Shown one piece after another: positions 3,133 to 18,300 of a stretch of DNA of 64,000 nucleotides. The translations under genes were made by a program, and so were the position numbers. Source of the DNA: Harriotta raleighana (taxonomy: Eukaryota). The DNA lies in the NCBI GenBank assembly GCA_050575255.1, contig JBNZDD010013731.1, positions 14,302,225 through 14,366,224 of the forward strand, in the 5' to 3' direction. Below the pieces are notes generated by a model. It saw nothing but the letters and a program-made list of their open reading frames with translations, made no database searches and was not told the DNA's origin. Every line of letters begins with the position of its first letter. Positions within the stretch are counted from its first letter, which is position 1.

Positions 3133-3253
3133 CTATAAACAAAGACACAGCTCCACAAGATGGAGATGTTACTGACTCTGAAACTTCATTGGTGGAAAGC
3201 TTCTCAAAGGTCACTTTTATCAAGTCCTTGGGTTCATCTTCACTCGCATGCAT
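3133..3253 (-). CDS. MOCS2: Molybdopterin synthase catalytic (large) subunit MOCS2B, first coding exon (exon spans 3258-3133); remaining exons not found in the window
   Basis: MHASEDEPKDLIKVTFEKLSTNEVSESVTSPSCGAVSLFIG matches the MoaE/MOCS2B EKLS..EV...V.SP.CGA.SLF.G motif; tttattttAG acceptor and G|GTAAGT donor. Confidence 0.93.
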
Positions 3254-3384
3254 GGTCACTAAAATAAAGGTACAACTGTGTAAAATGCAGCAGGCACGTC
3301 ACAAGATCTACCAATTATTCCTCTTTGGACTGCACAGGTGATCTTTAAAGGTCTCATTTTGTGCAATTCTGTGCAGTTCCCAGA

Positions 3385-12300: not shown

Positions 12301-15300
12301 TAACAAATCATGCAGATAATCATATTGGATCTTTCCACATCTTTCAAAGTCATGAATATTTGAGATTTAATAGCGATTTCCCTAATTTTAGAAAGTACTG
12401 ATACAAGAGCAATAGAACATTGCAAAGGAAGAAAGCAGTACAGAGTTTTACATGTCTGTGTTGGGAATTAACACCATATGAGTCAGGTGAACCTCTCACC
12501 TTTGAGTCAGAAGGTTATGGGATCAAGAACAACATCAGGATTTTGAATTAAAAGTCTAGGCTGACACTCAAGTGCATTGTTAGAGGTGCCACTTTTTGAA
12601 TGGGATGTTTAACTGAGGGCCCCTATGCCTGTTCACATGGATGTTACTACACTACTGCGGAGTATTTAAAAATGAGCTGGGTGTTTCTCTCAGTGTTCTG
12701 ACAAACAATTCTCCCAAATAAAATGTTTCATTTGCTTCATGGCTGTTTGTGGCATATTGCTGTGTTCACCATTGGCTTTGTGTTTGCCTACAAATGCACA
12801 GCCATTGCATCTCACAGTAAAATCCTGTGAAGCACTTTAAGACGTTTCAACAATGTAATAAGGCATTGGTTTCATTAATTGAAATCTAGTCGCTAAGAAA
12901 CCTTGTGAAATCCTGTGAGTGTTTTGACTGACAGATTTTATCTAGAGTTCCTTGCATGACACTAGGAGCCCTGAATGGATGGATGGGTAGATGGTTCGAG
13001 GGGTTCAGAAAAACGGCTTCAAATTTACAACTGAATTTAAAAATTTGCCTTTTTACTCATTAAGATGCTAAGAAATCATTGTCAGTAGAGATGCAGAAGA
13101 AATTTCTTCCTCAAGAGGAGGCATTGAACAAACCTAGGTTAGCTAACCTAACAAAATAATAATTTAATCAGACCAGCAAAAACTATTGTAAACAAAAATA
13201 TAAACCCAGTAGAGTACAAAAGTCAGAAAGTTATGACTAATCTCTATAAAACTTTGGTTTGGCCTTAGCTAGACTACTGTGTCCAATTCTGGTCACCACA
13301 CTTTAGGAAGGATGTTAAGACATTGGAAAGGATGCAGAGGAGATTTACAAGGAATGAGGGACTTCAGTTATCAGGAAAGGCTTGAGAGGCTAAGTTTATT
13401 CTCATTTGAGCAGAGAAGGATACGAGGATACCTAATAGAGGTTTTTAAGATCATGAAGAGATTTAACAGAGTAAACAGGGAAAAACTGTTTCCACTGGTG
13501 GGTGTACCAGTGACTCGCGGTCACAGATTTAAAATAGTTTCAAAAAGAAGCAGGGGGAAGTTGAGAAATTTTTTCACTCAACGAGTTATTCAAATCTGGA
13601 ATGCATTGCCTGAAAAGGTGGTGGAGGCCGATTTGATAACAACTTTTAAAGGAGGGGTATACATTTATTTAGGGAGGACGGGTTTGCGAATTTATGGGGA
13701 GAGAGCTGGGGAGTGGGATTAAATTGCTCTTTTCAAAGAGTCGGCACAGATTCGATGGGCCGAATGGCCTCCTTTTGTGCCGTAAGATTCTATGATTCAA
13801 CATGTTGGACTGAGGAATGTGGTATGCCCTGAACTGGGAAAGAAGTAGAGCAAAGTATCTGATCAAGTTCGACTCATAATTTCCAAGCTCCACATGCAGC
13901 CAATGTACACAAAACAAAAATCTGAGAATCACATGTGAAGCTTGGATGAAGCAACCTCTTTGATACATTTGACTTAATCTTCCAGAATTCCAACGCTACT
14001 GTGTTTCCATAACTGCATTGAAATATTTATTAAATGACCCCAGGTCTTTCCATCAATCACCATTCCTGGTAATCTGTCCAGTTGTTTACTGCCCCACATG
14101 TAAAGAAATACTTCTTGGTTTCTCCCCCAAACTTGCCCTCCACAAACCTAAGCCTGCGATTGGAGACAGATCTGTTACATCCAGGAGCCAGATGGAGACT
14201 TGGATATGTTAATCCTGCAACAGGACAGAGGACATATAATTAGGACATTACAAAAAAAAAGGAACTGGCTAGGTTCTTGCCCTGATTTATTGGTTATATA
14301 GCCAGATGTTATCTTGCTCATTTACTAGAACTTTACTAGAACTCTCGCTTCAATTGTCAGTTCAAACCTTTTTAGGAGGAGGATCTACTTTGGGATTTCC
14401 ATAAGTCCGAAGATCTACACAATATTAAAAAAAACCTTAGCTGTGAGCACAGAAGCATATGGGTTTCAACGCTTTGGGACGTCCTTCCGACGTGAAAGGC
14501 ACTATACAAGTGTAATTTTGTTGTGGTTGTTTGTTGTTGTCTGAGCACTTGCGGATTCGACCCATGGTTTGGAATTGACCTGCAGCTCAGTGGAGCCCCC
14601 ATGGAGTCCTGTAGCTCAGTGGTTAGAGCACTCGACTTACAAGTGAGAGACCTGGGTTCAATTCCAGGCAAGGCAAAACCTTGGGCAAGTTTCCTTACTC
14701 CACACATCTAATAATAATCCCTGGATAAAATACAATAATGAATTGTTCATTTCAATCCATGACTGTTTGTGGGACACTGCCGTCGCAATTGGTTGCCACG
14801 TTTCGCCTACATATATACAGTCAATTCACTTTACAGTAAATTCTGTGAAGCGCTTTGAGACATCTAGAAGACGTGAAAACGCAATATCAAATGCAAAGAT
14901 TATTAGTATTACATCTCCCACGATTTTCTGAACATTTGCAGCAGCCTTTCTCAACATCAATGTGGGAAAACTTACAAAATCAACTTTCATGGGTTTAGCT
15001 ATCAATTGGGGTCGATCGAGTTTGACCAGTTGGAGACCCCTGCTCTATTGCTTGAGCTCACAGTACACTGCCTATTCAGGTGGACATACAAGAGGTGCTG
15101 TCTGCCTATTCAGGTGGACATAAAAGATCCCACAATGCTATTTGAAAAAGTGGTCAATATTCCCCAAGATGTATTTGTTATTCACTTAATACTGGGTACA
15201 AATTAGGTGTTGCATTCACCCACAAATACCCAGCTACTTCACTTTACAGCAATTATTTGTAAAATGCTTAAGAGATGTTTTACAATTAAAACATATTTAT

Positions 15301-18300
15301 GTAGCTGGGAATCTAAGTTGGAAATGGTGGGGAGAGGAAGCTCAAAGCATGACTCAAAAGGTAGATTTGAAGGCAGATTTTAATAATAATAAAATAATAA
15401 TAATCCTTATGTTCAATATAGCACTTTTCCCATCTTCTAAACATCTCAAATCACTTTATGGAATATATTGTAAATGAATTGACTGTACATTTGTGGGAAA
15501 AACTTGAAGGTGAAGAAGGACGGGCAAGATGAAGGTAGAGTTCCAAAGAGTCCAAGCAAACTTTTTGAATGCTCAATCATCAATGATTAGGTAGACCAGG
15601 GCATGTAAAGATGTTCACTGATCAGAGAGGATAGCCAGAGCAGTAGAGTTGCAAAAGGTCTGGGAGGTAGGATGGATTGACCTCATGAAGGCATTTAAAA
15701 TGAGAATAAGGATCTTGAATTTAATCTACTGGGGCTTGGGGGTGATAGACTTATCTTTATAATAATAATCCTTGTATTTGATATGGTGCTTATTATTTTG
15801 TTGAGACATCTCAAAGTTTTTTAATATGACATTTTTTTATATGACAGCAATGAAGTCCATTGTCCATGCACTGGGAAACCATTGAACAGCATGAGATTAA
15901 TCGTGAAGTCCTGTAGCTGAGTGGTTCGAGCACTCGCCTTACAAGCGTGAGACCTGGGCATACTCCACACGCCTAATAATAATCCATCCAAAAAACAAAA
16001 TAACAAATTGGTCATTTCAATCCACGACTGTTTGCGGGACACTGCTGTGCGCAATTGGCTGCCGCATTTCGCCCACAAATATAGAGTCAATTCACTTTAT
16101 AGTATATTCTGTGAAGCGCTTTGAGACATCTAGAACATGCGAAAAATTCTATACCAACTGCAAGGATTATAGGAATCAAACCTGAATCCTCTTGTTTTTA
16201 AGGCAAGCAGCTAACCAGTACACCCCAAGACTCCATTTATTTGAGATAGGCTGTCATTCCTAAAGAAAGAACTTACTTTTTTGCAGAGCCTACAACATTT
16301 GAAATAACTTTCTAATAATTACTTATACTCTGCTTACAAAACTCTGCCTACCATGCAATAACTGTTTTTGTAGGCAAACCTGGCAGCCATTTTACACGGA
16401 GAAAAGTCCCCCAAACATCCATGAGGTGATCTATCTGGAACGTAAATTCAGCTATTTCAATTTGAGTAAAATGGCTAAATTTCATTATATGTGTTGCAAC
16501 ACGTTTCCTTAGGAATTCGTAGGCAAAGTGATTATGAATATATTGTGACAAGTAAACTGAAGATCTATAATACTGTATCATTAACATAAACCTTCTGTTC
16601 CAGCCTAACTATCTTTCAATTATGCCCATCATTCCAACATATTTAAAACACTTGCCACATGGCTTGCACACACTTGAGTGTTATTAAAACAATAGTATTT
16701 ATTCTGATGAAGGGTCATGGATCCAAAACGTTGACTCACTTTACTCCATAGATGCTGCCTGTCCTGCTGAGTGTTTCCAGTGATTTCTGTTTTTGTTGCA
16801 GTATTTTGAGTTATTGTTAGTGTTATGTTACCATGTTTAAAATGTCTGGTAGTGAGTTGAAAGAATAATTCAATCATTTGGTGTTCTGTAGACAGCTTAC
16901 TGTAACATTTACTTAAATTCCTAGCTTGTGTCATCTACTCTTCTATATCTGATGCTAACGTACTAGGTAACTGATGATGTTTAATCTAATATCAAACCTT
17001 GTTTTTCAGACCTTCTGTGTGATATCCTCAAGATTTAGTGCCCAGTATTTGTCTCGTTTCAACGTCAGCAAGTCCCTCTTTTTGTTTGCTCACACTCATC
17101 CATTAAGGAAAATTACCGTTCGTGCAATGACGCATCAATATCCTTTAGTCAAAACGGTTTGTTCTCCTTCCTTCTGCCAAAGTTAGTTTGTAATTGATAA
17201 GGTACATAACAGAAAACCATCAAACTCTATTAAGAACTATTGTTTTCTAGTGTACTGCTTTGTGGCTGAGAAACAATCCAGTAATATTAATGTGTTGAAA
17301 GCTGTGCCATTGCAAAATACAAACCTCTCTTTCAAATATTTAAGTTCTCTTCAATAGTAAATATAATTGATTCCATCTCCCAGCGAGTACTCAGATAGCC
17401 AAGGTTAGACCAAGCAGTATGTGGAAAATGGAGGGAGTTGAATAGGGGTGAAGGATGAAAGATGGAAATAGAGGGTTTTGATGAAGTACAACAAAAGGTA
17501 TTGTAGCATTATGACCTCTAGTACCACAATAATCCTGTTAACTAAACCCTCATTGGTGTCACGATGTTTCTAGGAATATCATTTTAAAACAATCAAGCAG
17601 TTACACTAGAAAATTAGATAAAGGTAATAATTGCTAGCATATAAATTACTCTATGTCATTGAGTTGGTTTTGTTTAAATGCAGCATGTGCCCAATACTGT
17701 ATAATATAAACACTTATAACATGAAGTTTGGAATCCGCATTTTCCTTAACATGTCTTTACAATTTTCAATTTTGTGATCATTGGAACAATCTTTGTGAAT
17801 ATGTTACTACTGGCGTTAAATAAAAATTTTGTTTTGATAGAGTAAGTATACTTGATATGTATTGCATTGTACATTGCATTTGTATACAGTATTAAATATA
17901 CTATATATAGTATATTCATCTATTTTAAAAGAAGAAAATATTTTACCAGTCATGTATTTGATAACATTTCTTCTGCTTTGAATCATTAGTTCAAGCTTCT
18001 GCTTCGTTCTTTCCTTTAATCCCACTACGCCCCACGAGCCCCTCCACAGCAAGGAAACTGCCCTGAACAAGGTCACAAATGATATTTTGACTATTTGCTC
18101 TCTCTGCCTCCTCGACGTATCTGCCGCCATCGATACCGTGGACCATTCGATCCTCCTCCACCACCTCTCCTCCCACCTCAACCTTCAATGTTCTAACCTT
18201 GACTGGTTGAGGTCTTACCTTTCACACCATCTCCACTTTGTGTCTGCCAACGGCTTTTCCTCCAGCCCCCGCAGTCTCGTGCAGTGTTCCTCAGGCTCTG

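Follow-up and report, generated by a model that had tools for sequence, protein, structure and literature searches.

A MOCS2 exon lies antisense within the likely first coding exon of the Nav2 channel gene in Harriotta raleighana

We analysed a window of 64,000 nucleotides of Harriotta raleighana DNA (assembly GCA_050575255.1, contig JBNZDD010013731.1, positions 14,302,225 to 14,366,224 of the forward strand), in which two genes on opposite strands are interdigitated: the cofactor gene MOCS2 on the minus strand and a gene for the sodium-channel-like protein Nav2 on the plus strand. The third exon of MOCS2 lies back-to-back inside the putative first coding exon of Nav2, and over the shared DNA both reading frames are open. 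The features of the interlocked region, in window coordinates, are as follows:

4120–4144, plus strand: candidate splice acceptor upstream of the Nav2 start codon (2.8 bits, a lower score than any of the 26 true training acceptors; rank 117 of 931 AG sites)
4166–4495, plus strand: Nav2 exon 1, predicted first coding exon, 110 codons from ATG to a CAG/GTAAG donor, phase 0, with a non-canonical N-terminus
4166–4337, plus strand: 57 codons of Nav2 exon 1 that fall in MOCS2 intron 3 and code on the plus strand only
4358–4483, both strands: dual-coding core, in which 42 plus-strand codons of Nav2 face, in register, 41 minus-strand codons of MOCS2A and its stop
4485–4509, both strands: superimposed splice signals, the acceptor and pyrimidine tract of MOCS2 exon 3 (minus) overlapping the final exon-1 codons and the donor of Nav2 (plus)
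4496–17009, plus strand: Nav2 intron 1, 12.5 kb, containing MOCS2 exons 1 and 2 and the predicted MOCS2 promoter region
17010–17137, plus strand: Nav2 exon 2 (tblastn E 2e-15 to Heterodontus P0012)
3258–3133, minus strand: MOCS2 exon 4, AG/GT borders, first in-frame MOCS2B ATG at 3253
4484–4338, minus strand: MOCS2 exon 3, 147 nt, with the MOCS2A C-terminus and its double glycine, the stop and 20 nt to the donor
5740–5619, minus strand: MOCS2 exon 2, inside Nav2 intron 1, AG/GT borders
9128–9117, minus strand: coding part of MOCS2 exon 1, 4 codons, inside Nav2 intron 1, AG/GT borders
8905–9500: likely MOCS2 promoter region, rich in CpG, with GC boxes at 8915, 8947 and 8983 and CCAAT-like sites at 8909 and 9094

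The positions of the MOCS2 exons given in an earlier note on this DNA hold, all with AG/GT borders on the minus strand, and MOCS2 exons 1 and 2 do sit, together with the CpG-rich stretch, in the first coding intron of the channel (4496–17009). The coding spans of the two genes share 4166–9128 (~5.0 kb), in agreement with the overlap of at least 5 kb claimed there, and the 147 nt of complementarity proposed between the mature mRNAs holds by construction, MOCS2 exon 3 lying wholly inside 4166–4495. The locus is not a plain divergent pair: the coding sequence of the channel begins 5 kb within MOCS2, so that a full-length channel transcript must start to the left of 4166. The argument that an acceptor before the ATG implies an upstream non-coding exon was not sustained: the acceptor at 4144 is weak, and 4166–4495 may lie in the true first exon. 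The interlock of the two genes thus stands, whereas its framing as a transcript overlap missed the double protein coding, the shared splice signals and the conservation in lamprey.

Within the dual-coding core, the first positions of Nav2 codons face the third positions of MOCS2A codons, an arrangement in which both strands could be read as protein over the same nucleotides. The splice signals are likewise superimposed on coding sequence, as the MOCS2 splice sites sit inside conserved Nav2 codons: Nav2 exon 1 spans both splice sites of MOCS2 exon 3, and the exon-3 donor falls within conserved [IL]-P codons of Nav2.

The identity of MOCS2 is supported by both of its products. Spliced exons 1–3 encode an 86-aa MOCS2A ending in the double glycine, whose exon-3 peptide (the last 39 residues) matches human MOCS2A (5mpo_A) with E 1.8e-14, and MOCS2B follows on the same predicted transcript, from the ATG at 3253. 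Exons 5 and 6 lie 10.8–12.0 kb to the left of the window; the layout was traced through exons 1–6, and the final MOCS2B exon was not located. On the plus strand, 25 exons were joined into one open Nav2 frame of 1726 aa with 23 GT-AG introns and one AT-AC intron, exon 1 joining the acceptor at 17009 in frame. Ion_trans and Na_trans_assoc domains were matched, and the filter motifs of the model give D, E, E and A, that is, a four-domain channel with 24 transmembrane segments and a DEEA rather than DEKA selectivity filter. The channel is ~90% identical to Callorhinchus milii models and clusters with lamprey P0019, reedfish P0021 and shark and ray models at a Shimodaira–Hasegawa-like approximate likelihood ratio test (SH-aLRT) support of 100 in a quick, unfinished tree; P0020, named 'sodium channel Nav2', matches P0019 from exon 2 onward. 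By these sequence comparisons the channel qualifies as an orthologue of the named vertebrate Nav2. Where invertebrate Nav2 falls relative to Nav1 is a long branch and an open fork in this midpoint-rooted quick tree.

An open frame opposite MOCS2A is by itself weak evidence for a coding exon, because the antisense in-register frame of the other Nav2 exons contains 48 stops in 1222 codons, which gives 42 open codons a chance of ~0.19. The Nav2 exon 1 donor ranks second among the 634 GT sites in 4166–17000, and the exon is present as a single copy in its own genome (1.1 Gb). A tblastn search with the lamprey segment (aa 1–117 of P0019) yielded one strong match in 144 kb, at 4166–4495 (E 6e-11), the next best having E 0.2. 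The MOCS2-intronic part of the exon scored 44 against lamprey aa 1–62 compared with a shuffle mean of 21 (5000 shuffles, p 2e-4), and was the best match for these residues among 1442 open reading frames (ORFs). No canonical Nav exon 1 was detected with a hidden Markov model (HMM) of 23 N-termini among the 1442 ORFs from −40 kb to 17009. A word-based search with Nav2 exon 1 among longer proteins gave no match, a PDB sequence search gave 0 matches and the ESM Atlas gave no usable match.

The lamprey RefSeq model P0019 (XP_061409600.1) aligns over aa 1–117 to the whole exon (27% identity, E 6e-13); it begins MAPF and then continues into exon-2 sequence. Its two isoforms differ by one Gln at the exon 1/exon 2 junction, which suggests that junction reads lie behind the model. 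Both isoforms, from Lethenteron reissneri, are the only models with exon 1 among the 27 vertebrate Nav2 models fetched; it is present in 0 of 23 jawed-vertebrate models and 0 of 2 other lamprey models, and the lamprey 'Nav2' AUY61917.1 as deposited is without it. The N-termini of the models lacking exon 1 are mutually unrelated. A two-sequence profile searched against 1.84 billion representatives gave three matches (P0135, P0136 and P0137), and P0138 is a member of the P0136 cluster. P0135 and P0138 contain the same exon in two Logan assemblies (54% and 65% identical to the window, respectively), begin MAP, read V-R at the donor position and align closely with the MOCS2-intronic part. P0136 is identical to P0138 across 49 residues; on either side of these it corresponds to the reverse strand of MOCS2 exons 4 and 2, joined at the same exon borders as in the window, which identifies P0136, as judged from its sequence, as a spliced MOCS2 mRNA read backwards. 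Assuming that P0136 and P0138 share a species, this shows MOCS2 exon 3 under Nav2 exon 1 in a second species. P0137, a repetitive 2925-aa protein, was set aside as unrelated, and a metagenome scan for Nav2 exon 1 gave 365 pattern matches, none of which was confirmed. Conservation outside the overlap, the donor rank and the second-species records are not chance.

The substitutions within the core bear the mark of both proteins. Differences from the window that are compatible with an unchanged MOCS2A residue made up 14 of 28 in lamprey (p 0.002), 10 of 16 in P0135 (p 0.001) and 8 of 13 in P0138 (p 0.004), against 123 of 538 in other Nav2 exons, a background drawn from 17 matched lamprey-versus-window stretches. 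By eye, 24 of 39 positions in lamprey are compatible with the residue of human MOCS2A, as is the stop, and all four sequences appear to keep residues able to encode the MOCS2 splice sites. At the protein level, the only one at which it was assessed, this pattern points to purifying selection on both frames.

Taken together, we propose that MOCS2 exon 3 lies inside the likely first coding exon of Nav2, that 42 codons are likely translated from both strands, and that the arrangement likely predates the split between lampreys and jawed vertebrates and is likely held by selection on both proteins, a reading to which we assign a probability of roughly 0.85. Nav2 would be transcribed from a start that lies to the left of 4166 within MOCS2, be it in intron 3, in intron 4 or farther out, its first coding exon would read the antisense of MOCS2 exon 3, and splicing would then skip MOCS2 exons 2 and 1 and the promoter to reach 17010. 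The transcription step is derived from conservation and the lamprey RefSeq model; the interdigitation and the codon register are read directly from the DNA. MOCS2A would be the older frame, because it belongs to the MoaD family, and part of the Nav2 N-terminus would have been overprinted on it, the overprinted segment presumably replacing canonical Nav exon-1 sequence. Changes in the Nav2 frame are, by the statistical signal above, channelled into those able to leave MOCS2A unchanged. The overlap would be a frozen accident, in which regulation by collision or RNA duplex, as put forward in the earlier note, is possible and is not needed; selection on both proteins would account for its persistence without regulation.

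Neither exon 1 of the window nor the lamprey N-terminus carries the FTRES...PLED motifs of the canonical first exon of Nav1 and invertebrate Nav2, and the HMM of 23 canonical N-termini matches neither of them (hhalign probability 0.2%). Several observations weigh against the proposed reading. Descent of Nav2 exon 1 from the canonical Nav first exon was undetected by HMM or hhalign, and such descent is neither shown nor excluded by these sequence profiles; short look-alike motifs between the two are not claimed as homology, and the left half of the exon would be either a much-diverged remnant or likewise new. AlphaFold2 prediction of exon 1 alone (5 sequences) gave a predicted local distance difference test (pLDDT) of 57 and a predicted template modelling score (pTM) of 0.18, with two helices; a helix spans residues 28–40 in this low-confidence model. 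The junction of Nav2 exons 1 and 2 rests on a predicted lamprey RefSeq model, the overlap in lamprey was read from the Nav2 protein alone, and one lamprey residue is incompatible with a second proline in the conserved PP motif. The silent-change test is based on the changes that codons allow rather than on observed codons, and the homologues were found with the exon-1 ORF as query, so open frames were selected (n=4). For a control, a metagenome scan for MOCS2A provided 17 loci, corresponding to 14 distinct sequences of distant homologues (45–62% identity); the antisense frame carries one to four stops in 13 of 13 distinct MOCS2A-like loci, and the row dropped from this control (L027/L028, without the double-glycine end) has an open antisense frame. 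As the 13 loci are AT-rich and most of them interrelated, and as the search itself picked out the four positives, this contrast is supporting only.

The best-surviving alternative, which we nevertheless consider unlikely, is that the overlap is real and is kept for regulation: the balance of MOCS2A and MOCS2B would be tuned by Nav2 polymerase passing along the promoter and exons of MOCS2 or by the duplex of 147 nt, or the influence would run the reverse way. The geometry forces the Nav2 polymerase over the MOCS2 promoter, both splice sites of MOCS2 exon 3 are spanned by Nav2 exon 1, and PMC3047299 discusses regulation through the TRalpha2/Rev-erbalpha overlap; however, double purifying selection is enough to keep the overlap, and MOCS2 persists in mammals, which are without Nav2 according to PMC6259924. 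It is distinctly less probable that the overlap is real in jawed fishes and that the lamprey N-terminus is a relic with MOCS2 no longer beneath it. Lamprey is indeed the most diverged of the four sequences (identical to the window at 14 of 42 overlap residues), and the position that cannot encode the second proline would fit such a loss, but the MOCS2A stop position, the double glycine and the residues at both MOCS2 splice sites are still encodable, the 42-codon length is gap-free, and even a relic would place the origin of the overlap in the common ancestor. Least credible of all is that the plus-strand ORF is a mere antisense shadow of conserved MOCS2A in a near-divergent pair, the channel having its start at some other site or at an internal Met, in exon 3 or at codon 40 of exon 2: the ~0.19 chance of an open frame, the 25 of 27 fetched models without exon 1 and the definition of 4166–4495 from genomic sequence would suit it, yet the 57 codons in MOCS2 intron 3, where MOCS2 places no coding demand, are kept in lamprey, P0135 and P0138, the ATG and the donor stay in the same positions, 57 kb contain no other canonical exon, and the truncated models have N-termini unrelated to one another.

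Downstream of exon 2, the Nav2 gene comprises the following features in the window:

17138–17760, plus strand: Nav2 intron 2, U12-type AT-AC, with ATATCCTTT as donor, TCCTTAAC as branch site at 17743 and an AC end
17761–61350, plus strand: Nav2 exons 3–18

Exons 19–25 extend beyond the window, to window-equivalent position 93531. The Heterodontus and Hemiscyllium models run through the U12 donor of intron 2 ('YP' after the exon), and no second AT-AC intron visible by tblastn was found in the gene. The linker between domains III and IV has LVT (window-equivalent 78142–80459) at the place where Nav1 has IFM, its inactivation motif. Frameshifted ORFs inside a Nav2 intron (46396–48059) resemble a transposase of the pogo/Tigger type. 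In the tree, P0021 (Erpetoichthys calabaricus), a ray-finned fish, falls in the vertebrate Nav2 clade; the review PMC6259924 gives ray-finned fishes as without Nav2, and cites the channel in ghostshark, coelacanth and lampreys, with expression outside the nervous system.

The MOCS2B frame contains no ATG in exon 3, where the position matching the human MOCS2B start reads ATA, and the same-strand overlap of 77 nt of the human type is thus not present; triple coding by an AUG-started MOCS2B in exon 3 was rejected on this ground. The same frame is also open for ~44 codons in exon 3 (4338–4470, minus strand), three frames (MOCS2A, MOCS2B and Nav2) being open across 4361–4470, and MOCS2B may have a non-AUG start there. 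Upstream, the ratio of observed to expected CpG is 0.91 across 9001–9500, and 8905–9500 is the predicted MOCS2 promoter region, its likely function being suggested by composition and motifs. The GC boxes and one CCAAT-like site (8905–8990) sit in MOCS2 intron 1, 3' of the MOCS2A ATG, and these sites could serve an alternative MOCS2 start or a plus-strand transcript.

The gene order at the locus is the C-terminus of an integrin alpha (plus), MOCS2 (minus), Nav2 (plus) and follistatin (plus). The integrin, at −24 kb with a GFFKR motif, is ITGA2-like, and follistatin lies at window-equivalent 105–107 kb (FST_N E 2e-26, FOLN); the human order is ITGA2-MOCS2-FST, with no channel known between them. 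One follistatin exon is present twice with identical translation, ~1.08 kb apart (L010:3278-3544 and L010:4362-4628), either an assembly duplication or a recent tandem copy. Three tRNA-like matches (5349–5415, 7982–8053 and 14605–14676; two called tRNA-Val by ARAGORN) lie in similar flanking repeats and are probably heads of short interspersed nuclear elements. The interval separating MOCS2 from the integrin gene contains two CpG-rich spots, ~16 kb and ~19.5 kb to the left of the window; as they resemble each other and look like repeats, neither was read as a Nav2 promoter.

Compared with known antisense coding overlaps, the MOCS2/Nav2 pair works in a similar manner and differs by its head-to-head, exon-nested and promoter-enclosing form and its apparently older age. 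As in the overlap of THRA (TRalpha2) with NR1D1 (Rev-erbalpha) described in PMC3047299, vertebrate coding exons overlap on opposite strands with bidirectional coding, the newer frame having evolved under the constraint of the older protein. That overlap is given as tail-to-tail, involving one alternative isoform and restricted to eutherian mammals (PMC3047299), whereas MOCS2 and Nav2 stand head-to-head and interdigitate, an internal exon of MOCS2 is nested in the likely first coding exon of Nav2, the MOCS2 promoter is enclosed as well, and the arrangement apparently goes back as far as lamprey. The LRRC8E/ENSG00000214248 pair, as reported in PMC4316641, is likewise an old vertebrate antisense coding overlap with an ion-channel gene under purifying selection and mostly unannotated beyond a few species. 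It is there described as a whole uncharacterised ORF in one channel exon, dated to bony vertebrates (PMC4316641); MOCS2/Nav2, by contrast, joins two known proteins over a 42-codon segment with shared splice signals and appears older. The channel itself agrees with vertebrate Nav2 as cited in PMC6259924, a DEEA-filter four-domain channel in chimaera and lamprey. The exon layout of MOCS2 follows that of the human bicistronic gene for exons 1–6, with MOCS2A in exons 1–3 (double-glycine end) and MOCS2B downstream; in the human gene, two sense-strand frames, MOCS2A and MOCS2B, share 77 nt of exon 3 (PMC9607355). In Harriotta raleighana, unlike human, exon 3 is dual-coded on the antisense strand, and the first MOCS2B ATG is in exon 4. 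No published report of the MOCS2/Nav2 overlap was found, judged on titles and the openings of abstracts and with the primary Nav2 paper outside this scope; it may have been noticed before, as the lamprey RefSeq model already contains exon 1.

A wider reconstruction, for and against which we would give even odds, would mean that no older locus is known in vertebrates at which two characterised proteins are encoded antisense to each other. Ahead of the cyclostome/gnathostome split, the ancestral first exon would have dropped out of Nav2 and a new N-terminus would have been assembled, in part from the opposite strand of the MOCS2A exon, with codons and splice sites becoming locked together; the same-strand MOCS2A/MOCS2B overlap would have come only after the loss of Nav2, and the N-terminus would be missing from nearly all database Nav2 models.

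Vertebrates very rarely encode two real proteins on opposite strands of the same DNA, and MOCS2/Nav2 would offer a natural test case for the origin and persistence of overprinted sequence in a eukaryote. Exon 1 would supply the N-terminus missing from vertebrate Nav2 (0 of 23 jawed-vertebrate models). Nav2 channels are characterised by a slow current permeable to Ca2+ and Na+. Nav2 recordings are listed in PMC6259924 only from arthropod and cnidarian channels; a full-length Nav2 clone can now be designed, which makes conduction by vertebrate Nav2 directly testable. In species that lost Nav2, relics of the gene are predicted in MOCS2 intron 3 and between MOCS2 and follistatin.

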